This document shows positions 13,974 through 64,000 of a DNA stretch of 64,000 nt, in pieces. This DNA is from Nemertoderma westbladi (taxonomy: Eukaryota > Animalia > Xenacoelomorpha). The stretch lies in the NCBI GenBank assembly GCA_032718475.1, contig JAUCBJ010008823.1, forward strand, positions 1 through 64,000. Reading direction: 5' to 3'. Position numbers and translations under genes: made by a program. The notes beneath the pieces were generated by a model. The model saw only the letters and a program-made list of their open reading frames with translations, did no database searches and was not told the origin of the DNA. The first letter of the stretch is position 1, and the number at the start of each line of letters is the position of its first letter.

Positions 13974-14029
13974 TTTATTTACTATGGTATACATGAAAGT
14001 TTACTATATTATTTATTTTGTGTTGGTTT

Positions 14030-21515: not shown

Positions 21516-21629
21516 CGTGATTGTGTACCGGTAACTCGTTTAGGAAATAAAAATAAATAAATACTTTTACGAAAATAATTAAAACTTTTCAGGAAAACAA
21601 AGAGACAATGATTGGGAATGTGGTGAACG

Positions 21630-21760: not shown

Positions 21761-21865
21761 TTATTCAATGGTAGACAGAATGGCGCCATTGAATAACGAA
21801 GACAAAGGGGCCGCGAGAGGAAAGATTATAAAGTTAACGATAAGGGATCTATAAACCATAGAGCT

Positions 21866-40270: not shown

Positions 40271-40879
40271 ATTGCCCAGACATTGCCGAGGCCCGAGGTA
40301 AGTAATATCTTTTAGTTAGAATGGGCAAAATAATTGTTATAGAAAGGCCAGATATAAAATACAGAACAGAATAATTAATGCACATTTAAATAATAATAAA
40401 ATACATGACATAATACAATTAACGAACAAAGCAACACAAAAACAGCACTGACAATGGGAAACAACAAAGAGTTAAAATTCGTCTGCCAGTCCAACACCGC
40501 GCAGACCCACCCCGTCACCAAATCCGAGAGCCCGCCAAGACCGACGTCCCCCTCGGAGGCAGAGGGAGTTGGACCGGAGGAGCGCGAACTGCAGCCGCCG
40601 GCGAACACCCCCCAGAACGCACGCGAGGCCCCTCTCTCTCATACCATCCCGCCTCGACACAAGTGTCTCGGCGAGTTGGCGGATTAGGATCTGGGCCTCA
40701 TCGCACCATACTCCATCAGTGGTGCCGACCAATGGGGTGAACGCCATCCTCCGGTCCTCGCAAAATAATTGGATATTACCAATATTAACTTCAAGGTTTT
40801 AGTTGATGCTTGGTATATGTAATAACATAAACATTTTTATAATTATAATTAAAAAATAAATAAACAACAATCTTTACAG

Positions 40880-43769: not shown

Positions 43770-43787
43770 TCATCGGGATACAGGATA

Positions 43788-45828: not shown

Positions 45829-47885
45829 AATTTAATATTGTCTTTAGCTACGTAACTCTTTCTCCTACTATAGGGAATCTTATAGTATATTATTATGTCA
45901 CTAAAAAAAATAATTTAATCACATTATTAATTTATGAAATTTACATACTATTTAATTTAATTAATTAAATCACCAAATTAATTATTCATGTATTTATAAT
46001 TTTTATTATGTGGCGTAAAGGTATGGAATATGTATAATGTCCTAGCGGTGCCCCCCCCCCCCCCCGCCCCCCATCTATTGATTTTTATTTCACAATTACA
46101 GTAGAAATTAATATTTACAGTATTTACTAAAAATTTAAAATTAATAGGCTGAAAAATTTCACTCATGGCTAATTATTATAACGAAGGATTTAAATTTAAA
46201 ACTATTGAAAGACAAACGTAGATGTTAAAAAAATTAATAAAATATGTAATAAATAATATATTTATATTAAAAATACAGTTCCCGCTTCTTTATTTCCTGC
46301 TGATGCTAACGAGACGTTACTTTCTTTAAACTTCAAAGGTACAAATTTCCAGTCTTTAGTTCCCGCATCCGTTATTTAACATTTTAATTTCAACTTGGAT
46401 CGTTTATGATTAAGAAATATATTAACCTCGGTTAGACAAGGTAGCATTTATATTATTTGGTTTTGCAGTAAAGTCTTCAAGGAATGAGGATTAAGCAACG
46501 GCGTTTCATTGTTTATAAATATCCTTCTTTTGATTGAGTATATTTGAAGAGACAGTAACAATACCTGCAATATCTTACTGTAAAGTTTGTGAATCAAATC
46601 ATAAATCCGACCTTCTCACCAAAACAGTAAACTCCAAGTAAGCGACTATATTGCAGTATCGATCTCTTATAACCGGTGAGGCAGAAAACAGTCTACGAGC
46701 AGACAAACTTCGATAAAACAAAATCCCGCGCAGCGAATCCTAAAATCAGGCTGACTCACTGACGGACTAAGAGGCTCGTATACTTTGCCGCGGTGTGATT
46801 TATATGGTTGGGCAAAAGAGACGCTAGCTAGGTGCAGAGATTTGGAGATGTCTAACTAGCGGGCAAAGCGCAGTACGGACAAAAGTTAAATTTTATATAT
46901 TTTGAGGTGTAAATAATTTCTAACGCGCGCGTGTGTTAATTCTAAACGGTCAAAGCAGTTTTGCTCCTTCATATATATAATTACTGGGTACGGTGTGCAT
47001 TTTACAAATATTCTAATTTTGTAACTTGTAGGTCCAATACTCACGAATGATAAGGCTCCTTCCCCTCTTGCGTATTTCCAGGACTCAAATTCAGGCATAA
47101 GGTTAATGCTACGCCCAGAATTCGGCAATTTTAATTTACCAGGCCCCTAATACTAAGAAGAAATGTGTTAGTTTACTACAGTAGGCGTACTGTTACTAAT
47201 AGCTAGCCTGGCGTCCTATCTAGAATTTTGGTTACCTAGGTGGGCTTGGTAACTTCCTATCAGGACGTTGGCGGGGACACGGTAGATGTTAGTATATCCC
47301 TAATAGCCTCAATTTATTTGCGCCTAGTCGTAAACTGCCCTACCGCCTGAACGGTACAATCCCAATTCAGGTGAAACACAGCAACCCTCCTGGCCTACAA
47401 GTTCTAATGCAATGGACACCGTTGTACTACAAATAGTCGCAAACGCACCTGTACTTAGCAAGAGTTAGGCGTACAGTTTGCTGCACCCTACCAATGTGTA
47501 TGCTTTGTACCGGTGTGCCTACGTCCTATCTGCGTACTAGTATCTCTGCCTGCTCTCCCCCCCCCCGTAGGAATATGAAGGTCTACTGCGGTTTTTTCCT
47601 GAATTAAAACGGTACAGTCCCTAAGATGTAATTTTAGGCTTACAGCGTGTCACTACTTCTACCTTTGATCTTTGGTCTTACGCTTAGGTAGCAAGGCATC
47701 GAACGCTGTCTAACCTTTCAGGCGATGGGCGAATAACTAAGATGGTATTGCGGGTTGTCTCCTGTCTACATTCCCTTGATGTTCCCGTTCATTGCTGCGG
47801 CCCGATCTCTAGCCGGCCATCCTGTTCCTAAGTGTGTTCACCGTAGTGAATCATGGTGAAAAGAAAATGCAGGTAGCGGTATTTC

Positions 47886-48190
47886 TGAATTTATTGCAGA
47901 TAATAATACAAAATGTAATCTGAAAACTAATGACAGAATAAACAAATATCAGATAACTCAGAATAATTGTGTAAGTGAAGAGTTAAGATTGAGAGATTGA
48001 GAAGTTGAGAGATTGATAACTAATGAACGAATCGCACCTTTATATAGCAAATTTGTGCTGCAATCAATCGAGAAAATTCTCGATTGTTCTATAGGTTCTA
48101 ACAGGTTTTTAAAGATAGCTATTGGTCCAGCTAATATATAACTTGCACGACATTGGTTACAATCTAATAACTGCAGTCTCATTGGTTAAT
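47886..48190 (-). promoter_or_regulatory. LTR-like promoter and polyadenylation block
   Basis: On the - strand: three ACCAAT boxes (about 48185, 48156, 48125), TATATAAA (about 48046-48039), a pyrimidine-rich initiator region and AATAAA (about 47895-47890). Confidence 0.6.
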
Positions 48191-48264
48191 CTAGGTACAG
48201 ACAAATACAATTTAATTTGTAGCGGTCAATTTAAATGAGTTGAAATTCTGTACAAAATATAATT

Positions 48265-48338
48265 CGCACTTACTAGGATTCGAACTCAATACACACTACA
48301 TATAATTTCCAACGCTCTACCGACTGAGCTACTGAACC
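48265..48338 (-). pseudogene. tRNA-like Pol III unit (A and B boxes, non-pairing acceptor and anticodon stems)
   Basis: GGTTCAG-TAGCTCAGTCGGTAGAGCG...GAGTTCGAATCCTAG on the - strand. Confidence 0.55.
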
Positions 48339-50029
48339 ACTTGAACAATAGGCGTACAAATAGATATAGTAAATACAAATGAGGACTTAATGTAATCTTT
48401 AATAAAGTTAATTCGAATAAAATAAAATTTTGAAAATCCACGGCATTTAGGGAATATAATTCTATACCACTCCATGAAAACAGGATATTATCGTGCATAA
48501 AATATACGGTTTTCACCAATAATCAATCAAACTATAGAATACTTAGGGCGTACTTACGTATTTACAAATTAAATTTCAAACAATACTTCCTTTCTACATA
48601 ATGATTCGATACAAAAATAATTACAAATTCAAACTTTACATATTTGAGGCTTTACTAAGTAAGTACAATATAAATCTAAATTAAATTCACCAATATAAAT
48701 CTATTGCATCTCAATATTGCATAAATTCAAATAATTACAAATACTTTCGTGCCTAAATGTAGATTGCATAAGTTCGGAATAATTACAAATATGAGTCTTT
48801 CTAAGCACAAAACTTTCTAACTATAAAACTTTCTAAATACAAAATATAACACTTTACAAATGAAACTATAAGAAAGGCCCACGAGTCTTCCATCTACTCT
48901 TACTTTCTATTTCACTGTAAATACAAATACTGCTTATAAGATATAAATTGCATAGTATTCGGAACAATATAAATTGCATAAGTTCGGAATAATCACAAAT
49001 ATAAAATAATAATCTTGCAAAATATAAATTCTTACTAAATATAAGTCTTACTAAATATAAATCTTACTAAATATAAATCTTACTAAATATGAGTTTTCCA
49101 GAATACAAAACTTACTAAATATAAAACATATAATTCAAATAAATCACAAATTCACAAGAAAGGCTCACGAGTCTTCCGTCCACCCTTGCCCTCCCTTTTA
49201 TCGCTTAGTTGATCGAGCCCTGCCGCGTCCTCGAAAACTGCGCACAGGGGACTTTGCTCGCGATATGGGACTCGTGGGGCGAGTCACTGGTTTCGCTTGG
49301 ACGTTGAGAGACGGTGCGACTATTTCCTCGCAAATTCGTCTATTTGGCATCCCAAAACCTCGACCGATTCCTCGTGACCGATCAGTTGTCACTACAGTTG
49401 GTAGAACGTCTGGGAACGCGCGGGAAGCGGACGACGCAGACCCAAGAGTAGCTTGCGCCCCCTTTTGATCAGCTGGTGTATGTCCCGATCCTCCTGTTGG
49501 TTCTCTAGGAAGCGATACCGTATCCCGAGTAATTCGAATGGTCGGCTCAGCTCCCTTGCGTTCTTCTATATTAATAGACTTCTTTAACTGTTGGCCCACT
49601 TTCTGGACCCGTATGATCCTACCCTGTCCGTCCTCCCGAGGGTGACGTGCAGACGGCGCAACCGGAGTGGCTGATATATTTGTCGCCTCTAGGACCTCCT
49701 CTTCCTCGAATACGCTCGCTCGTATACGTTTGTGGTAAAACGCGGCTCGGTACGCCCATGCGACGGTTAACCAAGCTCCTTTATTCCGCTTCTCAGTTCG
49801 GAAACGATCGAATTCACCATACGTGATGCGATTAACGACTTTCTGAAAATTCCACGTGTTTTTGTTATCCGGGTGAATCTGTAATAGATACTCGCGCACT
49901 ACTCAGAATCCACTGTCGTGGGGCAAAATATCGACTACCTCGATAAGTTCGTCATATTGGGGCATAGCGGAGATGTATGGTGGCCGACTGCTGCCACATA
50001 AACCATCAATGTCTAATAAAAATAATCGG

Positions 50030-50240
50030 TTAAAAAATCAATAAAAAAATTCAATAAAAAAAATTTCAATAAAAAATTTCAATAAAAAATTAAATAAAAA
50101 AAATTTCAATAAAAAAAATTAAAAAAAAATTCAATAAAAAAAATTCAATAAAAAAATTCAATAAAAAAAAATTCAATAAAAAAAATTACAAAAAAATTCA
50201 ATAAAAAAATTCAATAAAATAAATTCAATAAAAAAATATG
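50030..50240. repeat. A-rich degenerate microsatellite (TTCAATAAAAAAA)n inside the IS3EU-like element
   Basis: About 15 copies of TTCAAT(A)n. Confidence 0.9.
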
Positions 50241-50662
50241 TTAAATTTTTTTCTGAAACCCACCGTGGCCTACAGCTGCCAGGTATTCATTTAATACTAA
50301 CCACTGCAGTTATATTATACTGTATAGGTGGCAGTACTCGGCCACAGCGAAATAGAAAAAAAAATTGCAAAGTAAAATTGAATTCACACGTGGCCGACTG
50401 CTGCCAAATACTTTCAAACACATGGAAACATGGCCTACAGCTGCCAAAATGTGTATTTCCTGCAGTATCATTAACTAACATACTGTTTTGCTGTACCGGT
50501 AGGCTTCCAGTATCCTGTAGTTCGAGATTAGTTTCAGTATTCCGGTACTGAAATTCAAGCTACGAGCCTACATCAGTAGGCCTACATACAAATCTTGTAG
50601 GTACAATGCGGCAGCAGTGATCAGGCCCGGGACGGTAGGTAATTTAAGGGTTTCTGCTAATA

Positions 50663-51345
50663 ATGGCATGGAATAGTGATTATGGTTTAAAATCATTTCT
50701 CAGTGAAGCTGTTGCGCAAAATTGGTCTAGAAAAGAGTTGCTGCCTGCAGCAAAATCTAAATTTGGTCAGTATCCTTGGTCAATGAGAAGTTTGGATCGG
50801 CGTCTGAAGTTTTTTGAAATCAGTTACATCAATTATAATGTTGATATTCAAACTATTCGCAAGGCTTTAAAGAAGGAGATGGAGGGTCCTGGAAAACATT
50901 TAGGATATAGAGCCATGAATTTGAAGCTTCGCACTGTTTACAATATATGTGTTCCTCGTGATATTGTATATGAAATAATGAGAGAAGAGTACCCGGATGT
51001 GCTGGAAAAACGACGACTAGAAAACCGTAAACGGGTCCGCACTGGAGCTTTCAATTCAAAGGGCAGAAGGGTCCTTTGTGGTTAGTATCCGGGGATGGGC
51101 ACGATAAATTGTGCGGTTATCAGAACTCAACATTCAGCTACTGTATTTATGGTTTCCAAGATTCGTATTCAAGAAAATTATTACTGCTGAGAGTTATGAA
51201 GTCAAACTCCTGTCCTAAGGTTATTTCGCGACTGTATATTGAATTGATTACTACTTTGCAGTATTGCATGCCTGTTTTTCTTCGATTTGATAAAGGGACT
51301 GAAACAACAACAATGGCGATAATGCATTCTTATTTGCATTCGATA
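50663..51345 (+). pseudogene. IS3EU-type DDE transposase (HTH + integrase core), frameshifted and truncated
   Basis: SMRSLDRRL, GPGKHLGYRAM..KLR, VPRD.VY, GDGHDKL, IYGFQDSYSRK, LRFDKGTE. Confidence 0.8.
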
Positions 51346-54300
51346 AGTAGTAGGAGAAGCATAGCCCTCGGCCAACTCCTCCCTAGCCTGGGCTACGGGC
51401 CACATCTCAGAGGGCTATTAAAAATGCCAAATTTCGGTGCTAAATTGCGGTGTTTAATGACCATCTGTCACCAACAGTATTGATGCCTTCAACCAATCGC
51501 TGCGTATCACCTACGCGTAGCCTAACCTCACGATGCCTACCTTACTCGACAACTGTTACCACTCGCGAGTATTGATTCGCGTCGTTGCATCAACCAACCA
51601 TCGCATATTCATCTTCGCGTACCCAAACTTCTCATCGCATGGCTAGCCCCCACTATGCTATTATATCGAATCGATTACCAACTCACCACGGCTACTCTTC
51701 GACGGCTGTCACCAAACCAACCAACCGAGCGGCCTACCAGTCCAGCAGTAGGATACGTGTTGAAATTCCGCCACGTTTCCGGCTACACGTATACGAACAT
51801 TTCCATAGTTATTTCCTATCCATGCAACCAACCACTGTATACTGTATATGCAGACAACGTGGCCACCAACTACACGCATCACGCATATATTATATTGATT
51901 GCCAACTCCACAACTGCTGTCGCCAAATCAACCAACCAAGCAGTATGATACATGAGATTCCATCACGTTCTAGCTACGTGTATACGAGCATTAGTGATTA
52001 TTACGCAATAATTTTTTTTGTTTATACAGTAGTTACCCACCAGCTAATCAACCAATCAATAAACCGAATTTAGGCTATTTTCCAGTTTAAGACCTGTATT
52101 ATTTTTGAAAATATCTTATATATAATCTCTTGCTTTAATAGAGATGTATCCTTCCGACATCATCGTTTGGGGATTTACCGCCCAAAATCCAAGATGCGCC
52201 CTCATCGGAAATCGTCTTCTTTGTGCCGATACATGTTCGTCGGCTAAATCTTCCCACTCATCGAATAATTTTCTCACGAGTTTTACAGATTCGTGTTCAT
52301 AGGGTATGTCTCTTAGTTGGCATTCAGATGCTCGATGCCCTTTTATATTGCAATAAGTACATTGAGCCATAAATCTCCAGCAAGTATAAAAGGTATGAGA
52401 CCCTTGATCTCCACACCATCCACAGATTAGCTGAGTCGTAGTAATGTGCTTTCCACTGCACTTGGTCGAATGATGTCCAGCGACGCCACATTTACCACAC
52501 ATCGTATTGGCAGGGTACCACACTCGTTCGTATATAAGATCTCCAATCGGTCGAGCGCTTCCTCCCACACTATAATCGTAATCATCTGGATCTATGGGTT
52601 GGTAGGTTTCTGAGGGTTGTATACAAACTATAGCATCTGTTGCTTCAAGTTGTCGAATCTCCGTCTGAGATTTCTTCGGGAGGTTCCTTTCTATCTCAAG
52701 AAGTTCCTCTAAAGGATCGTCAGTGATCGTAGTAGTTACTTCGAAATCATCACCAAGGTGACCGATAGGCGCGCGCGTCTGCCGTGATTCATCCGTAATC
52801 TCCACGATACGTTCTCCTTCATAGGGTAACAATGTAAACATAGATGGTCTTTCGATAAGAGATCCCGCACAGCGAAGATACACGTCTCGAAATATACTAA
52901 ATCCTGCTCGAGTAAAGGCATTACACTGAGCGTCGGAGTTGTAGAAGGGTTCAAGGAATCGTCTAAACACGTCGGTATGAATTCTCCCTTCCATGTAGAA
53001 CGTATGATCTTCTCCGAGACAAAGTGGATGTCTTTTGAGAGTCCGAGACACAATGTCGGCGATTAGGCAAACATTCACTGACGACTCTATTGCTAAATAA
53101 TATTGTAGGACCGCTCTTGGAGGTGACGTAATAGCCCAATACACGCATCCTCTCCATTTAAGCTGTGATTCAAACTCACTCATATCTGGAGTATCACCTT
53201 CTCCATAAGTCTCAATATACTTGGTTCTCTTACTTTCCTTATAATCCCAATTGAATAACAGGTAGGAAATGTATCCAGTTCCAGTCTTCTGAGTATTATA
53301 CTCACGAAAATATCCCTGTTCTATAGACCACAAAATAAGAGGTCGAGTGTCGACGTAAGGTGTCGGTAGTCGGTCATCGCTGTCCGTCATGCCGGCGAAG
53401 TCGCTAATTAAGTCCTCCCTTACTCCTGATCCAATCTTTACAACAGTTTTATCTAAAATCATGTTTCTTACCATCTTCGGTAGCATTCTAGCGTCGATAT
53501 TACAAGCTTGGTCCATCTTCTTTACTATGTCAGTGATAAGATGGTGTCGCTTTGTATTCGCTGGAGGTATCGGCATTCGTTTGTCGCTCCTCTGTCTACT
53601 GAAAATGTGCAGGACTCCGTCCGCCGCTCTAATCTGTACAGTCTTAGAAGTCAAACTCTGTTGATGACTGCCGCCCTCGTTATCGTAAAACATGTAACCA
53701 TTTTCCTGAAACGATCTAAACGTCCTATTCCATTTATCCAACAATTCTTCCGAAGGTTGCCAAATCTTCTCTATGTCCTTATCATCTTCGAAACGAATAA
53801 CCTTACCTCGCCAATCCGCGGCAATGTCTGTATCCGACTCGAAGGTTCCGGTTCCAATCCATAAACGAATCGTCTTGGTTAAATATCCTTTCAAATTACT
53901 CGGAGCTATATCGGCACCAGCTCTATCCAGTTCCTTAAAGTCTTGAATATGAGGTGGAACGTTGTACACGACCTTTTGAGTAATATGTCTACGTAAATCA
54001 TATATCTTACTCATATCGCTGAAAACAACTGCAGGAAGAAACTCCAAGTTTGAAATGATTTCTGGATGATCCACGATGGGTATTTCGTACGTCGTATCCT
54101 GTCGGACTGGTATACTAATAGGAAAATTGAGTGTCGTACTCAATGGTTTCGTAGTCGAAGTACTATATGGTTGCATTTCTCTTGTCCTCTCCGGGGATGC
54201 AATCTGTAGTCTCTGAATAACGTTTTGAGCAAAGTTTATGCTCTCGAAAACTTCCGGTGTCATCTCCTTAGCTGGGGTTTGATCGTGTGACGTCCAATGG

Positions 54301-55742
54301 TAAGGTAGGCTCGCGAGTCTTCCGCCCCATTCTTCCATCTCACCTTTCTCGAAAGCCTTGTAGGCTCTGTATAGGCTAAGAGCTTCTTTCTTTTCGCGGG
54401 TTGACTGATTTGCCTCGTCCAGCGTAAGTTCAAATACATCGGGTTCAACAACCTTAGGTGGGTAAACGACAGTTTCTCCCGCCTTTGGTCCGGTCATAGC
54501 AAATGAATGATATGGATTCTATAAAGGATACCCTCCTTCCTGGTAGCGTAGTTGTTGATGGTTCGAACACCTCGCCAATATCGGTTCGGGATTTTCCTTA
54601 TTCAAACGCATCGGAATCGCATTTCGTTGTTCGCGCATACAAGAACCGCATTGATAATAAAGTTTATAAACTGAAAATGCTTCCTTGGTTTCTCTATCGT
54701 CTGTAAAGGTGCATTCCATCGAATTCATCGCGTACCGCGGGCATAGGTTCGTGCGCCTTCAGGTATTGCATGGTATGATACAAACGACTAATTTCAGTAT
54801 CGGGGTCTTCGCTAATGTCTCCCGTATCACACAAAGCGTCGTACGGGTACAGTTCATTGAAGGTTTTGCGCAAACTTTCGATTCTTTCATTTAATGCGTT
54901 TTGTCTTCTCTTTAATACATTTGAGTCATATTTAGTTCTCGCGAGTTTCGCTGTACTTTCTGATAATTCTTTTATACCAAATATAGTGTAGTCCTTGGCT
55001 CCAAATCTTTCGAATGGTGCTGCTGCCTCCTCTTGGATATCATATCCCCATCTCGGCTCTCCTTGTATCCCCTTTTCCATAATTAGAGGTGTAGTTACAT
55101 AATCATTACTACTAGAGGGAATACAACAGAGTTTGTAGTTAGTTGTGAGGAGACGTGAGAGTTTCGTCTGCCCTTTTGGCTCGACAACGCTCTAACCTCC
55201 TACCCATAGCCTAAGATCTAGGGTTTCTTTAATGACACGCTGCTTCTTATCTAAAATTTTTTGCCGAAATAAAAAACGAATTTGGGCTAAACTGGCTGTG
55301 AGTCTAAAATACTCACCTTTTGATCCCAAACTATTATCAGAAAATAAGCAATCAAGAATTAGTAATAAATATAGGGGAGTCTATTTATTGACGTAACTTA
55401 TTGAAACAAGACCGTGTAAAATTTAATTAAAATTTTAAGAAAGGCTCGCAAGTCTTCCTCTCTTGTTTCTCTAATTTTAAGTTCCACCCGACTGTACCCT
55501 GAAATCTATTCACTGGAGAAAATTTTAAAATTTTTCAAATCCAAATGGATTGTCTAAAATTTCGAAAATGTCTCAATATTGTGAGTTCCAAGTAGAATTC
55601 CATTTCTTATACCTACAAATCCCGCTCCTATGTGACACATAAGGGTACTACCCTCAATGTTCACATATAAAAGACAATGGAATTCTACCGCTGTCCTTAC
55701 TACGGTGTACAGGTACGTGGAAATCTATTTGTAAACTCCTAA

Positions 55743-58700
55743 TTATTTACTAATATTAGTTGGAGATTTGTAGTCTCCAGACTCGTTACGAGTCTCTTCA
55801 AGAAGTACGAGACGTTGAGTCGGTCTGTCTACTGTACGACCGTCAATTGTCCGTACCGTTACATTTCTTGTCACTCCATCCATAGATGGATGTGTGTCTA
55901 AAATTACACCTGTTATCCAGAAGCGTCTTTTTAGATTCACTTCTGCTAACAGCACGTGATCTCCCGGCTTTAATGCGCGGGTGTTATTGTACCAGTTTGT
56001 TCTGGCAGAAATAGAGGGCAAATAATGGTTTTGCCATATTTCCCAGAATTTGTTAGCTAGTAGTTGCGTGATTTTCCACGCTTTTCTACCGTAGCTATCG
56101 CCTTCCATTGGAATAGAAATAGGCGTCAAAGTTGTCGGTGCCTGCATAAGCAGGTGTGCCGGTGTCAAAGCAAACTGAGATTGTTTGTCATCGGGTACTA
56201 ATACTATTGGTCTAGTATTTAGTATTGCCTCGATTTCAACAAACAGTGTTGTCAGTTGGTCGTCTGTCAATATGTGGTTTACTGGAATGACCTTTGCCAT
56301 TGCCGTTTTGATAGATCTAATCAATCTCTCCCAGACTCCGCCTCTCCATGGACTATCTGGAGGATTAAACTTCCAAACAATCTTGTAAGGATGTAGTTCG
56401 TTTGAGATTTGATCATGATCTAATTTCTTAAAGGCTCTAGCAATCTCATTTCGAGCACCAACAAAGTTTGTCCCTTGGTCTGAGTACAAGCACTTCACTA
56501 GTCCGCGTCTAGCGATAAATCGCCGCAATGCTAGTATAAACGCGTTGGTGGAAAGATCCATCACACGTTCAATATGAACTGCCCTACTGGACATACATGT
56601 GAAAATCAGTCCCCAGCGTTTTACTAGTATACGTCCACGTTTCGTATGTATGGGACCAAAGCAATCAATTCCAGTCTCTGTAAAAGGTGGTCTGAATGCT
56701 TGAAGTCGTGCTTGTGGAAGTTCACTCATTTCTTGGGTACCTATTCTAGAATGTACCTTTTTACAAATAATACACGTACGTGTCACTGAACTTAACGCTT
56801 TACTGGGTCTAATTAATACAAATCTTGTACGTAAGTAGGAAAGACAGTGGTGTCTTCCAGCGTGTTTCAGATGTAAATGTGCGTCCAGTATCATTGCACG
56901 TTGTAGTTCGTGATGCTGTGGTATTATTATTGGGTATCTAAAGTTTGTGTTAAAGTCAATGTTTTGAAGCCGAGATTTATGACAAATTAAGCCATTATAA
57001 ATAATCGGACTCCAACTCAGTATTGGTGACGACTTGATTGGTTGACCTTGATTTATAGATGTGAATTCGCGCGCGAAATATCGCAGTTGGTAATGGCGAA
57101 TTAATTTAATTTCACACCTGTCAATCTCAGCCAATGTAAGCCGACGTGTAAAGTCTCGTTTGCCTTTAACGTATTGTACAAAACGTACAATCCACGCTAA
57201 TTTTCGGCAAGCGTTTGTCCAAGAGTCTGTTAAGTTTACAATACGGTCGACGTGAGTATTTGTGACGTCATCAGGTAAGTCAATGGAGAATTTGGAAGGT
57301 TTTGATTTACTAGAAGGGCCCACGGGTCCGCCGGTAAGTATTCCCTTGTTGACTGTTGATCCGTCCGGGTCTACAAGTAATTTGTCCTTCTTCGTCTTCT
57401 TACCTTGGTTGTCAGTACTTTGTAAGTCGATCGTTAATGGTGGTTTGAACTCTATGGGGTCAGTGGGTTTCGGTAAACTTATTTTTCTGCCGATATTAAT
57501 CCCGGGTCTCACCATAGGTTGCAAGTTTGGTATGTCTCTTGAGCGCAAAGTAACACCTGTATTTACAATAGCGTAGGTACTACCCACATCTGTAATACAT
57601 GAGGTTTCACCGTGCTTATGGTTGCTCAAGTGTGTCAAAATTGGTAGTTTGTCAATACAAGGCCGCTCCAATAGGGAAACTGCGGCTTTACTATTTGTCA
57701 ATATGTTACTAGTGTCTGGTAGAACATTTTGTGACATGTCTGGTAAAATGTTTCGCGGAACATCCGGCGAAATATCTAGTGATGTGTCTGGCAAAACGTC
57801 TGGTTGACCGTCTAGTAACGTATCTGGTTGTTTGTCAATAGAAGGCCGCTCCAATAGAGAAACTGCGGCTTTACTATTTGTCAGTATGTCACTAGTGTCT
57901 GGTAGAACATTTTGTGACATGTCTGGCAAAATGTCTGGTTGAACGTCTGGTAATGTGTCTGTTTGACCGTCTGGCGATATGTCTGGTGTAGAAAGGCTCG
58001 TAAGTCTTCCGTTCTTGACCTTTGAAGTTATCGCTTTCCATTTCGCCTTCGGTTTTTTCTTGAGTTTAGCCGCCGTCCTTTTCTTTGCTTTCCCTTTCTT
58101 TGGTTTTTTAATTTCCGCGTCTTTAGGGATATTGTTAGACTTGTTGTCGTATAGTGGCGGCCAATGTTGTATTGATCCCTGCAAGAACCGTGGTCCGTGC
58201 TGCCAAAATTCTTTGTTCTCCGGTTTACAGAATTCCTCAGGCATCATTCCTCGCGACGCAATATCGGCTGGGTTTTGTGGTCCGGGACAATGTCGCCAAT
58301 CTTCTTTTATTGAACGGTCTAGAATTTCCGCGCGACGGTTAGCTACGAATGTCTTGAATTCAAGTATGTCGTTGTTTATGTAAAATAAAACCAACGTCGC
58401 GTCAGTCCAATAAAATATCTGTAAACTTGACTGTAGTTCTGTCTGTATAAGGTTCACAATTGTGGTTGACAGGGTTGCGGCTTGTAGCTCAGCTCGTGGT
58501 GTCGTCATATACTTAGTAGGCATTGTTTTTGCCTTAGAAGTAATGAGCGAAACATCGAATTCTTCTGAGTCTACTTGTCTGCGCAAGTACGCTGCCACAC
58601 CAAAGCCGTTGTCACTGGCGTCGGAAAAACAATGTAATTCCAAGTTGTCAGGAAATGTTGTTTGTAATGGAAAGTATACTCTGGGTATGGAATAATCCTC

Positions 58701-61700
58701 TAACGAAGATAATTCTGCCTCCCAGGTTTTCCATAAGTCCACTTGGTCTGATGAGATCGGCTCGTCCCATGTTAGTCCATCCTTCCAAATACTGCGCATA
58801 TAAATTCTGGCTTGCAGTATTATTGGACTGATGAATCCTAATGGATCGAACAATCGGCTCAATTTTGACAAGCATGATCTCTTTGTCAGTGTGTTTTCTT
58901 GACTGTCCAGTCTCACCTTCACTCGAAAGTTGTCCGTGTTTGGGTCCCAAAAGAGCCCCAACACCTTGGTCGTCGGTAGTGGTTCGAACTCTAGGTCTAT
59001 GTCACCACCTCCACGCTCAGTCGTTCCGAATGAGTCTACTAATTCGGCACTGTTTGAGGCGAATTTGGTGAGGTTGAAACCTCCGCCCGCTAAGCAGTCC
59101 CGTAATTGATGTGCTACTGTTATAGCACGTTCTACTGTGTCACAACTCTGTAAACCGTCGTCGACGTAAAAGTCACGTTCCACAATCTTAATTATCTCTG
59201 GGTCATACATGTGTTTCTGATCCCTAGCGGCTTGCTTTAGGGCGTACATCGTACAGTTTGGGCTGTCCCTGGCACCGAAAACGCGAACTTGCATTTGGTA
59301 AGTCGCCGGTGGTAGACTTAAGTCTCCTTCCGGGTACCAGAGGAACCTCAAACTGTCTCTGTCTCGCTCTAACGCTCTCACTTGGTGAAACATAGCTTCG
59401 ACGTCGCAAGTAAAAGCTACTTGACGCTGACGGAAGCGCATAATCACCCCCATAAGATAATTATTCATGTTTGGTCCATCCATCAACTCGCTATTGAGGG
59501 ACATTCCCTCAAACAGAGCCGCACAGTCATTGACTACACGTACTTTGTCTGGTTTGTCGGGGTGTCTCACGAAGTGATGTGGCAAGTAGTATGTTTGGTC
59601 AGTCACTATCTCCGGGTTAGTCATTCGGATAGCGTATCCCTTGGACAAATACGTCTCCATCTGAGTGTTATACTGCAGATGGGCTTTCTCGTCCTTTAAT
59701 AGACGTTGTCGTATTGAGTGTAGTCGTCTTAAAGCTAGTGGATAGTTATTTATAAGTTTAGGACTTTGGCTACGCCATAACATCCCTACCTCATAATGTC
59801 CGTCTTTCGTCTGGCGGATAGTATCTTCCATGATCTTCAAAGATTGTTTCTCCTGTTCCGACATACATGGTTCGTAGCTACCAGGTTCAGCTGTATCTTG
59901 TTCTAACCACCTGATAGTCTTCTCCGTTAATTCTTTGTCCAGTGCAGCTTGTTCCACTTGATGATTTCTTAACGCGTCATCATCGATATCGACGGGTATT
60001 GTTGAGGTTATTGGGGTAGGTAGACTCGCAAGCCTTCCGGCGTTATCATCTGTCGTCGATGGAATCTCTGGCTGACTCGTCTTCTCCCCAAGTTCTAAAC
60101 TCACCTGGTTGATTAGCTGCTCCTTGTGACTTATCATACTAGTTACACATCTGTCATGTTTTGTCAAATGTAGTGTAGTATGGTCCACGTCGTGTGAAAA
60201 GGAATGAATTGAATTTGTAGTTAATAAACTACATGTACTTTGTACATCGTCTTCCTCGTCACTTATGTCTAGTGTGCGCACAGGCGCTCGAGTATACCAC
60301 CCTATCGGTGTTCTACAGGCGTATGCGTTTCCCGCTACGACTGCCGATGGTCTGGTTTCCCACACTTGATGTAGGTTGAATTGGTCTGTCCCGATCAGCA
60401 TGGCTACCGATCTATAATTGACAGGACATTCAGGTACACCAAGGTGTCTGAAATACTTACGGTCCTCCAAGGATTGTTCTGGGACAGGACCTAGTAGGTT
60501 ACTAAAGTCCTTGGTGGCCGCAAAAGTCAAATCCTTAAAGGGTAACAAAGACCTCTCCTTTTCGCTGTGTTGCGATTTCGGAAGAAGAGTGTCTAAGTTT
60601 AACTTAACTCGTGTCACTGGTATTGCACGTTGTCCGTGCATACTACTTACGGTGTAACTGACGCGCTTACCTTGTCTGAGATCCGTCACGACATCAGCTA
60701 TCTGCTCATCCACGTAGCTGTGAGATGAGGCTGAATCCAGGATAGCGTAGATTCTCTTGCTCCCTTTTGTGCCAGTAATCTTAATCGGAATTACACTGAA
60801 ACCCTTTAGTTGGTCAGTCGTCAGAAGCGCGATCGATGGTTGTTCGTCTCCATCTGAATATACGTCGTCGTCTTCCGACTCTTCGTCCGACGATCCGGAT
60901 TGTTCTGAGAAGCAATCCTTAATATGTGTCACGAAGGTTGGAGTCATTTTCGATTCTCGATTCTTGTAGGCCGTATTACATTTCGCTGCTGCTTCCGGGT
61001 GTTCCCTGGCGAAGCGTTTTGTCGGCGTGTGGCTGTCTGTGTGGAGCAGACCGTCGTGGTTGCGTCCACAGGATGGACAAGTGTCGGTATTTGGGCAATC
61101 TTTGCGGACGTGTCCGTGTCGCGTACACCGCCAACAAGAGTCCAATGGTCGTATCTGCAGCCGTCGTTCTTCCGAGTTTAACTCGCGAAACTGTCGACAA
61201 CCTCTCAACTTGTGACCGATATACCGCTTGCCTAAATGCTCGCAGTATTGGCAGCTGCTGAAGTCTGTACTGAGTTGCTGTCTAGTCTGTTTTATTCCAA
61301 TGGGCGCGGATACCCTACTACCGTCCGAGAATTGTCGTGTTTCCGTCAGTGTGGCGTAAGTGGCCGTCTTGGTGGATGTTGTCTGGGGTTTTTGTCGGTT
61401 TGAGGATGGCAAGGTGATTCCTTCTGCTATGATGTGCTGGTCAGTGTAGTTGGATCGAGTTTCTACCACTGCTTCCCTGGATATCAAAAGGTACACATCT
61501 TCCAGTTTTAAGAATCCACCCCGCTCTTCCCGCTGGTATTCGATCTTCCTCCACTCCCGACGAAGTCGATGGTGGAGTCGTCCTATGATCTTTAATAGGA
61601 CTGTAGGGGTATTCCCGTAGTCAAGTTGTCCAATGGATCTCAAAGTAGTGATAGCGTTCTTTATTTCGTCAGCCAGTTTCAATAAGTCGACGGGTTTAGT

Positions 61701-63170
61701 AATAGCCCCTCCCTTACAGAGTTCCTCTATCACTGACCTGGCCATGCTGACTGTACCTCCGTAGATCGAAGTTAAACGATCGTACGCTAGTTCGAAGGCG
61801 TCCGGTACACCAATGAAGGTCTCCGCCAAACGTTTAGGTTCTCCCGACAACGTTTGAAGCAGGTAATTAAACTTCTCCCGTGATGTAAAGGCGCACACGG
61901 CGATCTGAGATTCGATATAGTCTACGAAAGTGTGCCAGTGTTTTGAGCTACCGGAAAACTTAGGTGGTTGTTGCACCGGTAGTCCTTGTCTAGCTGCGAA
62001 TTTCGCTATTTCCTCGGCAACGTTCAGAGTTTCACGTCCTTGGTTGGTAATCTGGTTGATGTCCCTTCTTGGCGCTTTTCCCTGATACGAAGTATTGGTC
62101 GATGGTATTTGTCTTTGCAGAACCTTTGGGTTTCTATTGTGTTCGAATTCGGAATTTCTCGAACTGTCGGTGTGAACTTCCTCCAAGCGTTCCTCGATCT
62201 GGGCCAACTTGTTGACAACTGGTCGCAGAATGTCGGCAAACTGTTGTGAACTGATTGCGTCCGTTGGTTGTAACGCCTTCTGTGTTGGTGTATTTTGTGG
62301 AGGATTGTCTACAAAGGAGTTATCTGAACGCTCGCGTTTATATTCATCGGCCGCCCCTGTTCTAAATACCTCGCGTTTCGGGTAATCCGATTCGCTCGAA
62401 GTACTACTATCATCTGGATATGGTGGTCGACGTGCTCGCGTCCATTGCGTCGTACGAATTCTAACGTTTCGTTTCGGAACATCGTCCACTGTTCTCCGTT
62501 GTTCGGTAGGCTCACAAGTCTTCCTCGAAGTCGTAGATTGCGATGTAAACTGGTTGAACGGTCGCTTATCCACTGGTCTCCGTTGTTCGGTAGGCTCACA
62601 AGTCTTCCTCGAAGTCGTAGATTGCGATGTAAACTGGTTGAACGGTCGCGTATCCACTAGTCTCCGTTGTTCGGTAGGCTCACAAGTCTTCCTCGAAGTC
62701 GTAGATTGCGATGTAAACTGGTTGAACGGTCGCGTATCCACTGGTCTCCGTTGTTCGGTAGGCTCACAAGTCTTCCTCGAAGTCGTAGATTGCGATGTAA
62801 ACTGGTTGAACGGTGGTCGGACAACAGCGTTTGAATCCAAAGGCCTTGTAGGCCTAAACGTCATTGGGTACGTGTAGTGCGTAACGAGTTTTGGTGTCGA
62901 AGGTGGACTCACCTGTTTTGTCGTCAGTAGTGCAGGTCCAGTCAACAAACTACTACGATCTGTAATCGGTGGGTTACTTACCTTGACTTTCAAAATAGGC
63001 GACGACGTTGCTCTTGAATTTGTCCGGAATAACCAACCTGTGTTCCATCGCACCATGGATAGGAGAAATATCACTACTACCCGCAATCGAAACAGGTTCC
63101 TTAGTTGTAACTGGTGCGAACATAGGGGTTCACTTGTGTCTTTCTGGGCTCCTCCCCGAGGCGCACCCAC
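55743..63170 (-). CDS. BEL/Pao gag-pol polyprotein (Gag, Zn knuckles, aspartic protease, RT, RNase H, integrase); true start uncertain
   Basis: PPKFSG..HW.TF Gag; CWRCTRHGHVRKDC and CPSCGRNHDGLLH; LDSAS; YLPHH.V, SLN..LMDGP, DVEAMFHQV, FYVDD; FDPLG, FSDAS, PRAELQAA, NPADIASRG; H..H..C..C, GIDCFGP, SDQGTNF, GGVWERLI. Confidence 0.97.
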   Translation of the reverse strand: MGAPRGGAQKDTSEPLCSHQLQLRNLFRLRVVVIFLLSMVRWNTGWLFRTNSRATSSPILKVKVSNPPITDRSSLLTGPALLTTKQVSPPSTPKLVTHYTYPMTFRPTRPLDSNAVVRPPFNQFTSQSTTSRKTCEPTEQRRPVDTRPFNQFTSQSTTSRKTCEPTEQRRLVDTRPFNQFTSQSTTSRKTCEPTEQRRPVDKRPFNQFTSQSTTSRKTCEPTEQRRTVDDVPKRNVRIRTTQWTRARRPPYPDDSSTSSESDYPKREVFRTGAADEYKRERSDNSFVDNPPQNTPTQKALQPTDAISSQQFADILRPVVNKLAQIEERLEEVHTDSSRNSEFEHNRNPKVLQRQIPSTNTSYQGKAPRRDINQITNQGRETLNVAEEIAKFAARQGLPVQQPPKFSGSSKHWHTFVDYIESQIAVCAFTSREKFNYLLQTLSGEPKRLAETFIGVPDAFELAYDRLTSIYGGTVSMARSVIEELCKGGAITKPVDLLKLADEIKNAITTLRSIGQLDYGNTPTVLLKIIGRLHHRLRREWRKIEYQREERGGFLKLEDVYLLISREAVVETRSNYTDQHIIAEGITLPSSNRQKPQTTSTKTATYATLTETRQFSDGSRVSAPIGIKQTRQQLSTDFSSCQYCEHLGKRYIGHKLRGCRQFRELNSEERRLQIRPLDSCWRCTRHGHVRKDCPNTDTCPSCGRNHDGLLHTDSHTPTKRFAREHPEAAAKCNTAYKNRESKMTPTFVTHIKDCFSEQSGSSDEESEDDDVYSDGDEQPSIALLTTDQLKGFSVIPIKITGTKGSKRIYAILDSASSHSYVDEQIADVVTDLRQGKRVSYTVSSMHGQRAIPVTRVKLNLDTLLPKSQHSEKERSLLPFKDLTFAATKDFSNLLGPVPEQSLEDRKYFRHLGVPECPVNYRSVAMLIGTDQFNLHQVWETRPSAVVAGNAYACRTPIGWYTRAPVRTLDISDEEDDVQSTCSLLTTNSIHSFSHDVDHTTLHLTKHDRCVTSMISHKEQLINQVSLELGEKTSQPEIPSTTDDNAGRLASLPTPITSTIPVDIDDDALRNHQVEQAALDKELTEKTIRWLEQDTAEPGSYEPCMSEQEKQSLKIMEDTIRQTKDGHYEVGMLWRSQSPKLINNYPLALRRLHSIRQRLLKDEKAHLQYNTQMETYLSKGYAIRMTNPEIVTDQTYYLPHHFVRHPDKPDKVRVVNDCAALFEGMSLNSELMDGPNMNNYLMGVIMRFRQRQVAFTCDVEAMFHQVRALERDRDSLRFLWYPEGDLSLPPATYQMQVRVFGARDSPNCTMYALKQAARDQKHMYDPEIIKIVERDFYVDDGLQSCDTVERAITVAHQLRDCLAGGGFNLTKFASNSAELVDSFGTTERGGGDIDLEFEPLPTTKVLGLFWDPNTDNFRVKVRLDSQENTLTKRSCLSKLSRLFDPLGFISPIILQARIYMRSIWKDGLTWDEPISSDQVDLWKTWEAELSSLEDYSIPRVYFPLQTTFPDNLELHCFSDASDNGFGVAAYLRRQVDSEEFDVSLITSKAKTMPTKYMTTPRAELQAATLSTTIVNLIQTELQSSLQIFYWTDATLVLFYINNDILEFKTFVANRRAEILDRSIKEDWRHCPGPQNPADIASRGMMPEEFCKPENKEFWQHGPRFLQGSIQHWPPLYDNKSNNIPKDAEIKKPKKGKAKKRTAAKLKKKPKAKWKAITSKVKNGRLTSLSTPDISPDGQTDTLPDVQPDILPDMSQNVLPDTSDILTNSKAAVSLLERPSIDKQPDTLLDGQPDVLPDTSLDISPDVPRNILPDMSQNVLPDTSNILTNSKAAVSLLERPCIDKLPILTHLSNHKHGETSCITDVGSTYAIVNTGVTLRSRDIPNLQPMVRPGINIGRKISLPKPTDPIEFKPPLTIDLQSTDNQGKKTKKDKLLVDPDGSTVNKGILTGGPVGPSSKSKPSKFSIDLPDDVTNTHVDRIVNLTDSWTNACRKLAWIVRFVQYVKGKRDFTRRLTLAEIDRCEIKLIRHYQLRYFAREFTSINQGQPIKSSPILSWSPIIYNGLICHKSRLQNIDFNTNFRYPIIIPQHHELQRAMILDAHLHLKHAGRHHCLSYLRTRFVLIRPSKALSSVTRTCIICKKVHSRIGTQEMSELPQARLQAFRPPFTETGIDCFGPIHTKRGRILVKRWGLIFTCMSSRAVHIERVMDLSTNAFILALRRFIARRGLVKCLYSDQGTNFVGARNEIARAFKKLDHDQISNELHPYKIVWKFNPPDSPWRGGVWERLIRSIKTAMAKVIPVNHILTDDQLTTLFVEIEAILNTRPIVLVPDDKQSQFALTPAHLLMQAPTTLTPISIPMEGDSYGRKAWKITQLLANKFWEIWQNHYLPSISARTNWYNNTRALKPGDHVLLAEVNLKRRFWITGVILDTHPSMDGVTRNVTVRTIDGRTVDRPTQRLVLLEETRNESGDYKSPTNISK
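62488..62815 (-). repeat. 84-bp in-frame tandem repeat (about 4 copies) in the gag N-terminal region
   Basis: PFNQFTSQSTTSRKTCEPTEQRRPVDTR x4. Confidence 0.95.
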
Positions 63171-64000
63171 GAGGCAGACACCTTTCCACCACCCCTGGGG
63201 CCAGTCCGACAGATGTTATTATCAGACCGGGCCAGAGGGTGGCCTGATGCTTCCCGGGTTCTGTTTTCGGTCCCCCGATCACACCAGCACAGCTCGTCGA
63301 ACGTGTAGCCAGATGGGCGGCTACTGTCAACTTACTGTGGCCTGACTGTACATTGAGCCAACTCAAAGTATAACAAAGAGTCAACCGGCAGGTGAACCAG
63401 TCGATAGCGATCGAGCACCAAGGTCGCCCTTGGGCCTAACCGACGGTCTTGTCCCAAGCGGGCTTGCGCTACCCAACATGGAATATTGACACGTTTTCAC
63501 CTGCCTCGCCGGCAATATTGAGGGGAAGTAAGTTCCACAAACAATATTGACTAGCTCGAAAGCTAGGAACAAGTAACCACTTACCCGTCCTGTACACGTG
63601 TACTCAACAGATGTTCACGAAATCAAGTACACTATGGTAAACACAAAATCTGACACATACCATGCACACACAAATGACATAATCGGGTAAGACAAAATCG
63701 GGGTCAAAATCGGGAAAGACAAAATCGGAAGGGACAAAATTGTATCGACCGGAGGCAAATCGAGAGTACTTTATTTTACCGACAGGGTAAAATAACTTTG
63801 TGTGCACAAAGTATGCTGGGGCGCAGTAAAGTATGGTCCTACTAATACCAGCGGCGTCTGGTCCAACTGACAAGGGTTCCCATACCCACTCGCAGTGGCC
63901 ACACATACAATCACGTGTACTCACGTACCCACAGCAACAGAAAACTCAAGACCCGACGGTTTATTCCAATGCCACCAAAGACCAAGTCAGCTGAACATGG

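Follow-up and report, generated by a model that had tools for sequence, protein, structure and literature searches.

A self-complementary 20-nt motif repeated along a BEL/Pao retrotransposon, possibly a set of RNA-RNA pairing sites

In this work we ask why a single short word should recur ten times along one retrotransposon, inside and outside of its genes, and on which molecule it acts. The window, i.e. the whole 64,000-nt stretch of DNA that was analysed, had been described in a sequence-only reading as carrying a conserved 17-nt stem-loop, proposed to be a repeated RNA signal. The host element is a BEL/Pao LTR retrotransposon, the sense strand of which is the minus strand of the window. The following features were delimited:

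55743..63215, minus strand: BEL/Pao gag-pol ORF, 2490 aa from stop to stop, recognised by Pfam domains, motif positions and homologues
54519..55191, minus strand: two short frames upstream of ORF3, one of 165 aa and a Cys/His-containing one of 79 aa
52116..54518, minus strand: extra ORF (ORF3), 800 aa, separate, downstream of pol and on the same strand
about 52908-53780, minus strand: likely DEDDy/EXD-type exonuclease domain in ORF3 (ESM Atlas, homologue P0122)
52320-52499, minus strand: three CCHC knuckles in ORF3
49979..52149, unstranded: ~2.17-kb nested insertion, flanked by 9-bp direct repeats and containing an rva_4 integrase-core remnant; motif-free
49198..49902, minus strand: 234-aa frame ending in a basic tail rich in Arg/Ser (R+S make up 31% of the final 80 residues)
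46588..47770, minus strand: candidate 3' LTR, TG...CA ends set by eye, partner LTR past the window edge

The single gag-pol frame has the order protease-RT-RNase H-integrase and three Gag Cys-His knuckles (aa 655, 694 and 713). It matches the Pfam families DUF1759 (E-value 8e-11), Peptidase_A17 (2.5e-42), Integrase_H2C2 and DUF5641 (2.3e-20), and its best homologues reach 44% over RT-RH. DUF1759, Peptidase_A17 and DUF5641 are domains specific to BEL elements, found in Gag, RNase H and the integrase tail. We read the protease motif at position 825, YVDD at 1350, RNase H at 1528 and the integrase at 2183-2329. The window holds no long direct repeat, the 5' end of the element falls past it, and the element is not depleted of CpG (o/e 1.08-1.36).

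ORF3 looks like a DEDDy-type exonuclease followed by three zinc knuckles. ESM Atlas scores to PF01612 clusters were 0.88 and 0.92 (for the 0.92 query PF01612 was found in 24 of 30 matches and 162 of 256 features), and the acidic motifs can be aligned by eye with homologue P0122; Pfam gave no PF01612 match, HMM and PDB comparison gave no support, and the predicted folds were uninformative. The 165-aa and 79-aa frames are probably pieces of the ORF3 gene, broken in this copy, and the 234-aa frame is probably its end, which a stop and the nested insertion have split off here. Searches with the extra frames returned no match to a DNA-binding family, and domains of no known family remain in them.

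The scan for the motif recovers every site of the sequence-only reading at the position it gave:

62757..62776, minus strand: gag repeat copy 1, core TGTG, 3' ACC
62673..62692, minus strand: gag repeat copy 2
62589..62608, minus strand: gag repeat copy 3
62505..62524, minus strand: gag repeat copy 4
62485..62814, minus strand: tandem array of 84-bp units (3.9 copies, 98%) within the N-terminal extension of Gag, holding these four sites
60019..60038, minus strand: protease-RT linker, G6/T15 replacing A6/C15; predicted pairing hub
57991..58010, minus strand: start of a ~280-aa RNase H-integrase (RH-IN) insertion, core TACG
55439..55458, minus strand: non-coding spacer after pol, core TGCG
54304..54323, minus strand: N-terminal portion of ORF3, core CGCG
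49158..49177, minus strand: directly past the stop that ends the 234-aa frame; its core is CGTG
48872..48891, minus strand: AT-rich 3' UTR; local duplicate of the preceding site, 1 mismatch, G13

The loops and peptides had been read rightly (RKTCEP in gag, GRLASL or GRLTSL in pol and ORF3), and the accessory gene is indeed tied to the element through its motif site. The length has to be corrected from 17 to 20 nt: the motif is dyad-symmetric end to end and is its own reverse complement, GRWAGRCTYRYRAGYCTWYC, the supposed loop being included in the self-complementarity. On the element sense (minus) strand GGAAGACTNNNNAGCCT has eight exact matches, while the site at 48875 departs from it at one position and that at 60022 at two. 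Against the symmetric pattern nine of the ten sites have no mismatch and the remaining one has a single mismatch, while the next best 20-mer of the window has three; 100 dinucleotide shuffles gave a mean of 0.01 matches, and none equalled the observed 20 strand-hits. The motif had not been noticed outside the element, and it is indeed absent from bases 1-48871 at up to 2 mismatches, a region of which 13.9 kb is satellite. The candidate LTR has no site at up to 4 mismatches, and none of the ten sites lies in 63216-64000, the part of the sequence before gag (785 nt) that falls within the window. In an unbiased word search of the element the top ten words were all the motif (5-7 separate clusters); once it was masked, no other word was found in more than three clusters, and the same kind of search found no comparably dispersed word inside gag-pol of 7 relatives. 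None of 11 distant BEL loci carries the motif.

The copies had been counted as ten, but the four in gag belong to one array, which 0-1 of 120 homologues align, and the two 3' copies lie within a local duplication of 72% identity, so that there are seven distinct sites and about six independent placements, at intervals of 1.1-3.1 kb. With the nested insertion subtracted the spacing is more even than random (CV 0.33, P 0.016, post hoc), and with it kept the spacing is unremarkable (P 0.14, post hoc). Seven of the ten copies, or four of the seven distinct sites, are ORF-borne. All three independent placements in gag-pol are in linkers to which no more than about 12 of 120 homologues align, and stretches so poorly aligned make up 28% of the protein. 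The presence of the motif in two reading frames and in non-coding DNA bears out the earlier view that the constraint is on the nucleic acid.

Site boundaries are sharp at 20 nt, with unrelated flanks at most sites; two flank classes were noted (TTTCT at four sites, TACC at three), and the RH-IN and post-pol sites have 28 nt in common. Among family contigs, X1 and X3 skip ORF3 (48744 to 55425) and X1 skips one 3' unit (48790 to 49152), the joins falling 6-14 nt from a motif site. At 60035 nine nt are missing at all depth in X4, at 42% in X3 and at 11% in X1; worked by hand, this deleted variant would match the symmetric pattern at 20/20 if its other letters are the same. Position 9 of the post-pol site varies T/C among family contigs, and the sole substitution listed at this site (55450) keeps the symmetric pattern.

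Five symmetric pairs of the motif are nearly invariant in sequence. The four central bases are YRYR at all seven distinct sites, and at six of these they are able to pair when two strands form a duplex. Position 6/15 is symmetric at none of the seven; outside it, departures from symmetry on the sense strand amount to 12 G.U cells vs 1 A.C, a trend among cells that share ancestry. Position 12 is G at 7/7 sites, its mirror position 9 is T at 4/7, and one orientation is shared by 6/7, site 60019-60038 matching also on the opposite strand with 1 mismatch. It had been claimed that the variants keep pairing, but we found no covariation: none of the eight pairs is altered on both sides. Both changes at 60022 are at third codon positions, and an inverted copy would look identical.

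Folded in isolation, the sense 20-mer has the local hairpin as its structure of lowest energy at 7/7 distinct sites. The stem of this hairpin has at most 8 pairs and symmetric mismatches only, and its energy is -0.4 to -2.0 kcal/mol at six of the sites. The antisense-strand hairpin is more stable at 6/7 sites, sense z-scores range from +0.92 to -1.20 with none significant, and Rfam gave no match at E up to 5. In context, the probability of the hairpin is at most 0.21 at all eight sites tested with 50-nt flanks and exceeds 0.1 at one of the eight with 150-nt flanks. Because of the z-scores, the low in-context probability, the stronger antisense fold and the self-complementary central bases, the part of the earlier proposal that makes each copy a stable local stem-loop with a free 4-nt loop is poorly supported, while its other part, an RNA-level role for the motif, is on balance probable.

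Duplexes between different direct sites are predicted at -11.8 to -20.2 kcal/mol, and those with site 60019-60038 at -24.2 to -30.7 kcal/mol. This site is predicted to act as the complement of the others: when the 16-kb sense strand is searched from end to end, 6/6 of them find their best partner here (-26 to -32 kcal/mol), with 18-19 of 20 positions paired. Its self-hairpin (-4.9) and self-duplex (-25.3) are also more stable than those of any other site. Self-duplexes range from -8.2 to -25.3 kcal/mol and are weak for two of the seven sites, namely gag (-8.2, equalled by 39% of element 20-mers) and RH-IN (-10.5, equalled by 24%). The mean duplex energy gives the sense strand a slight edge (-19.2 vs -17.2 antisense).

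The reading we favour, tentatively and with a probability of roughly 0.36, is that the motif is a set of repeated RNA-RNA pairing sites which serve to dimerise and pack the long genome RNA. The self-complementary word along the transcribed interior would act on the RNA in the manner of the dimer-linkage palindromes of Ty1 and retroviruses, though at sites every 1-3 kb; each copy would be a marginal hairpin, predicted to pair far better with another copy and best with 60019-60038, whose G6/U15 would convert the A6.C15 mismatch of the others to Watson-Crick pairs in trans. A zinc-knuckle chaperone, either the Gag nucleocapsid or the ORF3 knuckles, may anneal the sites within and between two genome RNAs, which would hold a genome of >15 kb in register, condense it for packaging and favour template switches beside the sites. 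We prefer this reading because the loop of a hairpin needs no self-complementary YRYR centre, because departures are of wobble type where a DNA site read alike on both strands should show the two kinds equally often, and because the duplexes are far stronger than the hairpins, with the hub as universal best partner. The motif-free candidate LTR, the even spacing, the linker placement, the contig joins near sites and the post-pol substitution that stays within the pattern also argue for it. It is weakened by the lack of double-sided changes, the two ordinary self-duplexes and the small sense-strand energy edge. The hub effect is automatic for any inverted copy, functional or not, and depends on two synonymous third-position changes at a single site; pairing needs no identical sequence at all sites, whereas protein recognition does; the spacing test is post hoc and loses its signal with the insertion kept; and the motif is missing from the distant BEL loci.

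The main rival, possible though doubtful, is that the motif serves as double-stranded DNA, its two inverted 10-bp halves being the target of a dimeric element or host protein; it would then label the integrated element along its length, e.g. against silencing, as VANC targets do in VANDAL transposons. The perfect dyad pattern with its five near-invariant pairs and no compensatory swaps is what such a site would give, as are the opposite-strand match of 60019-60038 and the 20/20 symmetry that contigs lacking 9 nt would keep; the core varies by CpG-type transitions, and copies were multiplied by tandem duplication, as reported for VANC targets (PMC5735166). But six of seven sites keep a single orientation, variation is strand-biased (G.U over A.C; position 12 vs 9), position 6/15 is nowhere symmetric, CpG is not depleted, and the candidate LTR is motif-free. 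VANC sites are, moreover, mainly non-coding while most copies here are ORF-borne, and the extra frames have no DNA-binding family, their recognisable parts suggesting RNA. A local weak hairpin with a 6/15 wobble and a tetraloop that contains G, kept stable by the Gag nucleocapsid or by ORF3 and involving no pairing between copies, would lead to packaging, export or protection from silencing, and we hold it to be unlikely. A.C and G.U are known to be isosteric, and both leave the purine on the same side at 6/15; the hairpin is also the best fold of every isolated sense 20-mer. For RSV, binding of the nucleocapsid to the G residues in a UGCG tetraloop has been reported (PMC5035970), and 2/7 sites have this loop; an LTR element, Cer1, has a Rev-like export protein (PMC10309623). 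Against it are the in-context probabilities, z-scores, missing covariation and missing Rfam match given above, the self-complementary loop that it leaves unexplained, and the observation that changing UGCG left RSV Gag specificity unreduced (PMC5035970).

Could 60019-60038 instead pair with just one of the other sites at any moment, so that 2-9 kb of RNA is looped out and one of several spliced forms (full length, Gag-only, ORF3 message) is selected? The docking/selector mechanism was defined for Dscam1, where several sites are complementary to one and pairings compete (PMC6071210), as is predicted here. A perfect 5' splice-site match (60107) precedes the hub by 69 nt, the sense strand has nine copies of the donor-like AGGTRAG and the antisense strand has one, and 3/7 sites follow a strong donor by at most 139 nt (post hoc P about 0.02). 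However, a pyrimidine-rich acceptor follows within 200 nt at just 2/7 sites, the nearest upstream strong donor is 0.9-5.5 kb away for 4/7, and the self-hairpin and self-duplex of the hub compete. Dscam1 selectors are intronic, beside duplicated alternative exons, while the sites here are in unrelated coding linkers and UTRs, most without a nearby acceptor; we judge such a switch distinctly unlikely. At similarly long odds, an element-encoded exonuclease-fold zinc-knuckle protein might read or remodel the long-range helices of a network of one hub and many spokes, and so switch the RNA between splicing, ORF3 expression and packaging, which, if true, would be a Dscam-like competing-pairing switch in a retrotransposon with its own captured reader. 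On this view the nine near-identical sites would be designed to pair poorly with themselves and well with the protease-RT linker site. Very unlikely, finally, are neutral scars of a palindrome that stalls or attracts RT, spread by template switching and surviving where proteins tolerate it: the two flank classes and the 28 common nt show copying from two ancestors, local duplications carry sites, and linker placement is equally expected, but edges are sharp with flanks mostly unrelated, variation including the 55450 polymorphism stays within one symmetric pattern, and no other word is so dispersed in the element or in gag-pol of the relatives.

Several known systems resemble the motif or the extra ORF in part. 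In Ty1, PAL1/PAL2 fold into a hairpin while the RNA is monomeric, and in the dimer they pair one RNA with the other (PMC6844567); they are likewise self-complementary LTR-retrotransposon RNA with alternative contacts. They are 6-7 nt long, mutually different and located in the 5' UTR/leader, while here one 20-nt word with fixed asymmetry and one complementary site occupies seven distinct sites over 14 kb of ORFs and spacers, with none in the 785 nt before gag, which weakens the pairing reading. Long RNA genomes use dispersed packaging signals (10.64898/2026.06.18.733228), and those of ssRNA viruses are also many along the genome RNA, in coding sequence, cooperative and possibly with one dominant; they are stem-loops of loose consensus, whereas our motif is near-invariant, dyad-symmetric and weak as a predicted hairpin. 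The VANC targets of Arabidopsis VANDAL share with it a short element-specific, tandem-amplified motif and an element with an extra gene, but are 8-9 bp non-coding DNA words of a DNA transposon (PMC5735166); here the motif is 20 bp, symmetric and mostly ORF-borne, no VANC-like protein was found, and element-specificity refers to the window. Egalitarian binds RNA helices through an exonuclease-homology domain, with retrotransposon cargo including the I-factor ILS; it is a host protein that recognises long, bent and bulged stems whose sequence is poorly conserved (PMC13186709), in contrast to the stem of at most 8 bp, the conserved sequence and the absence of a long bent stem with 3' bulges here. 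A post-pol extra ORF with a DEDDy-like domain and Cys/His motifs is known from bdelloid Juno/Vesta ORF3 and Terminons, and for the Juno/Vesta LTR elements no dispersed motif is reported in the available parts of these papers (PMC5408684, PMC6431247). The hosts of DEDDy ORF3 are there the bdelloid Juno and Vesta LTR lineages, while here the host is BEL/Pao, and three CCHC knuckles follow the likely domain.

A scan of the minus strand, which is the sense strand of the BEL/Pao LTR retrotransposon, recovered the 17-nt pattern of the sequence-only reading at all the places where it had been reported: 8 matches are exact, and the remaining two copies have 1 and 2 mismatches. The conserved stretch, though, is 20 nt long, not 17. 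Its symmetric form, GRWAGRCTYRYRAGYCTWYC, equals its own reverse complement and is matched with 0 mismatches at 9 sites and with 1 mismatch at one site. In the whole 64-kb window the next best 20-mer already has 3 mismatches, which bears out the earlier impression that the motif is confined to the element, and shuffled sequence gave 0.01 matches on average. Since the pattern had come from the sites themselves, an unbiased word search of the element was added. Its top 10 words were all the motif, found in as many as 7 clusters separated by 300 nt or more; once the motif was masked, no other word of the element occurred in more than 3 clusters. The four gag copies form one 84-bp array and the two 3' copies lie in a duplication of 72% identity, so that there are 7 distinct sites and about 6 placements. 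The motif is a real feature, described here from one element copy and fragments of its family. The sites, and the extra frame that follows pol, are as follows:

62505-62776, minus strand, four motif copies in gag
60019-60038, minus strand, protease-RT (PR-RT) site
57991-58010, minus strand, RNase H-integrase (RH-IN) site
55439-55458, minus strand, post-pol site
54304-54323, minus strand, site in ORF3
49158-49177 and 48872-48891, minus strand, two 3' sites
52116-54518, minus strand, ORF3 (800 aa)

Constraint at the peptide level was rejected, as the motif is read in two frames and also stands at non-coding sites. Polypurine tracts were rejected as well: the upstream purine fraction is 0.8-0.85 at the four 3' sites and 0.45-0.6 at the others, and there is no common TG start. 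Ribozyme, Roquin CDE, histone stem-loop, IRE and BANP-type sites, compared by eye, do not fit. Against Rfam, positions 46000-64000 had no match with E as high as 5, and a tRNA search found none.

The host element has a 2490-aa gag-pol frame (55743-63215) with BEL/Pao domains, whose best relatives reach 44% identity over RT-RNase H and, where named, are mostly from marine invertebrates. Three stretches set it apart from 120 homologues: Gag is extended at its N-terminus by a long segment, the protease-RT linker aligns poorly, and ~280 aa are inserted between RNase H and integrase. All three motif placements in gag-pol fall within them, and together they account for 28% of the protein (0.28 cubed = 0.02). 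At 57640-57990, within the RNase H-integrase insertion, there is a 126-nt duplication together with 24-nt repeats that code for low-complexity sequence rich in Pro and Asp, adjoining a Lys-rich stretch. No motif site was found in the candidate 3' LTR (46588-47770), and the 5' LTR lies beyond the window end, so the element exceeds 15 kb without the insertion nested in it. Public contigs under this organism's code give deep coverage from 46.5 kb up to where the window ends, except for lower depth at 50128-51335, inside this 2.17-kb insertion, which carries an rva_4 remnant between 9-bp direct repeats. Among the sequencing runs listed as containing the sequence, none is of RNA. As depth is low only over that rva_4 part of the insertion (49979-52149, with its 9-bp target duplication) and 51336-52149 is deep in two of the contig sets carrying the family (X1 and X3), the insertion may consist of two nested elements.

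As a local hairpin the motif is only weakly predicted. The isolated sense 20-mer does fold as the sequence-only reading had proposed, but its energy is between -0.4 and -2.0 kcal/mol at six of the 7 distinct sites (the PR-RT site gives -4.9 kcal/mol), and at those same six the antisense strand folds better. With 50-nt flanks the stem probability was 0.21 or less at 8 of 8 sites tested (two of the four gag copies and six others), with 150-nt flanks the stem formed at the post-pol site only (0.92), and z-scores ranged from +0.92 to -1.20. Variants previously taken as pairing-preserving did not amount to covariation, as a double-sided change occurs at no pair among the 7 sites of 20 nt; the two changes of the PR-RT site are synonymous, at third codon positions, and the same as inversion would give. 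We consider local hairpins stabilised by a protein improbable. All sites have YRYR as their four central bases, a feature that speaks for a duplex, of either RNA or DNA.

Between copies, the predicted pairing is stronger. Position 6/15 is never Watson-Crick, being A.C at six sites and G.U at one, and for this reason the six direct sites, that is, the distinct sites other than the PR-RT one, are predicted to pair better with the PR-RT site (-24.2 to -30.7 kcal/mol) than with themselves (-8.2 to -20.5) or each other (-11.8 to -20.2). In the entire sense strand the PR-RT site is the best predicted partner for 6 of 6 direct sites, at -25.7 to -32.2 kcal/mol against -18.7 to -24.8 for the next best, with 18-19 of 20 positions paired. 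Such a hub pattern is expected of any inverted copy, and the self-duplexes of the gag and RH-IN sites do not stand out: leaving the insertion aside, 39% and 24% of the element's 20-mers do as well. We rate it as very improbable that the copies are neutral scars.

Whether the duplex is one of RNA or of DNA was approached through the 70 mirror-position cells, which on the sense strand hold 47 Watson-Crick, 13 G.U, 7 A.C and 3 A.A combinations. A DNA site should split G.U and A.C without regard to strand, and a sense RNA duplex should prefer G.U; outside position 6/15 there are 12 G.U cells against 1 A.C, but because cells share ancestry, perhaps reducing them to 5-7 events against 2, the excess is only a trend. 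Mean duplex energy differs little between sense (-19.2) and antisense (-17.2). The G.U excess tells against a DNA dyad label, a reading that the near-invariant symmetric positions favour, as does tandem amplification of the kind known for VANC targets (PMC5735166), and that we hold to be rather unlikely. Also in its favour, a variant within the family that lacks 9 nt at 60035 would, as worked by hand, still fit the symmetric pattern if nothing else differs. Variation seen in other family copies conforms to the pattern as well: at the post-pol site, position 9 varies between T and C (2%, 43% and 12% of depth in X1, X2 and X3), and a loose end beside 48744 in contig set X4 bears the 3' part of a canonical site. 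None of the 40 differences listed of 1249 among family contigs lies in a motif site (0.4 expected), and the comparison of motif with flank has no power, since it lists one substitution in 211 bases and its table leaves out contigs that carry other letters.

The six clusters are 2612, 2028, 2552, 1135 and 3127 nt apart after subtraction of the insertion (CV 0.33, P 0.016) and give P 0.14 with it left in, both post hoc. Donor-like AGGTRAG occurs nine times on the sense strand and once on the antisense, and a strong donor precedes three of the seven sites by 23-139 nt (P about 0.02, post hoc) but not the other four; a Dscam-like splicing switch seems to us more improbable than protein-stabilised hairpins.

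Taking the RNA readings together, the motif probably acts at the RNA level. The one we favour, at a probability of roughly 0.36, is that of repeated pairing sites: copies on the genome RNA would pair with one another, a zinc-knuckle chaperone would anneal them, and the annealed sites would dimerise and condense the long genome RNA. Both the binding protein and the purpose are what we infer. The nearest precedent is Ty1 PAL1/PAL2 (PMC6844567), alongside dispersed packaging signals; in the proposed role the motif would work like a dimer-linkage or packaging signal, but its location does not qualify it as one, no copy lying in the part of the 5' leader that the window covers. A sharp 20-nt word at seven sites offers a direct handle on dimerising, packaging or protection of a genome RNA of over 15 kb, and short oligonucleotides can distinguish the RNA from the DNA readings.

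As far as can be seen, the motif is lineage-specific, given its absence from viral contigs (0 matches) and from eleven distant BEL/Pao loci (best match 3 mismatches in 89,387 bases), and 37 single matches in metagenome contigs that we treated as unrelated. The latter were rejected as element relatives, as none contained another site within 2 mismatches or gave a tblastn match to gag-pol or ORF3. No related loci were found in viral contigs. The eleven pol loci (35-42% identity) come from assemblies labelled as bacteria, are probably animal host DNA carried into them, and hold no ORF3 relative. An unbiased word search covered the seven over 5 kb, six of which have no word in more than 4 clusters. 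In the seventh, L044, the repeated words lie outside gag-pol, and a dispersed same-strand repeat (104-5855 and 13188-19961; 10-14 copies, 0 inside the ORF) flanks the BEL gag-pol (7057-11983). The literature searched described no cis-acting RNA signal in BEL/Pao, and neither a dispersed palindromic motif nor a DEDDy ORF in BEL/Pao surfaced, all of these being weak negatives.

ORF3 carries three CCHC knuckles and, likely, a DEDDy-type exonuclease domain. A protein language model placed the whole protein at 0.88 to DNA_pol_A_exo1 (PF01612) clusters, the top match being an exonuclease plus zf-CCHC, and the domain alone at 0.92, with 24 of 30 matches to PF01612 and 162 of 256 common features, below the tool's guide of 170. 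Word searches matched only P0122, a homologue with a matching layout (E 4e-5 in 1.8 billion, 24% identity over 440 aa), which had no match in phages or plasmids; HMMER gave 3 matches, 2 of them knuckle-only. The pairwise alignment keeps D-x-E, a second Asp and Tyr-x3-acid in both proteins, at the places that these residues occupy in DEDDy enzymes. The call goes no further than likely because Pfam did not confirm the domain, PDB sequence searches gave weak knuckle or chance matches only, and AlphaFold models (pLDDT 31 and 32) did not confirm the fold; Foldseek returned nothing at E up to 0.001. DEDDy ORF3s are known in bdelloid LTR elements and Terminons (PMC5408684; PMC6431247), and PMC5408684 leaves the role of the rotifer proteins open. 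The motif is a candidate ligand for such proteins, and if the domain call holds, DEDDy ORF3s extend to BEL/Pao.

In this copy the ORF3 gene appears broken, with short upstream frames, a stop apparently private to the copy, the insertion and a downstream 234-aa basic Arg/Ser-rich frame. Upstream, at 55250-55390, AATAAA at 55389 is followed at 55319 by a perfect donor that has acceptor-like AGs to either side (by eye), a layout that suggests a short intron or micro-exon in the ORF3 message. In some family contigs (X1 and X3, about 2% of depth) the entire ORF3 block is missing and 48744 is joined directly to 55425, which lies 14 nt beyond the post-pol site; others skip one 3' unit with the joint 6 nt from a motif site. 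Internal deletions of 2.0-2.1 kb (52922 to 54941 in X1 and X4; 52810 to 54925 in X3) take out both the exonuclease-like domain and the motif site of ORF3.

Elsewhere in the window we observed:

259-1372, 42-bp G-rich tandem array of 26 copies, all three minus frames open
7010-22770, Polinton/Maverick-like element with 389-nt inverted repeats at 100% (7010-7398, 22382-22770), extending to about 550 nt; inside it a type B DNA polymerase ORF (11190-13469, DNA_pol_B_2 E 1e-19) and unassigned ORFs of 589 and 577 aa
14077-14728, 148-200-bp tandem units with tRNA T-arm-like words, no tRNA by ARAGORN
26333-40276, 57-bp satellite of 245 copies (97% matches), one minus frame open over runs of more than 1,000 codons
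40864-43769, plus strand, host-gene-like pieces, RabGAP-TBC (E 1.5e-20) and DUF4682 (E 1e-7)
43787-45826, 22-bp minisatellite of 93 copies, directly beyond the 3' end of the element
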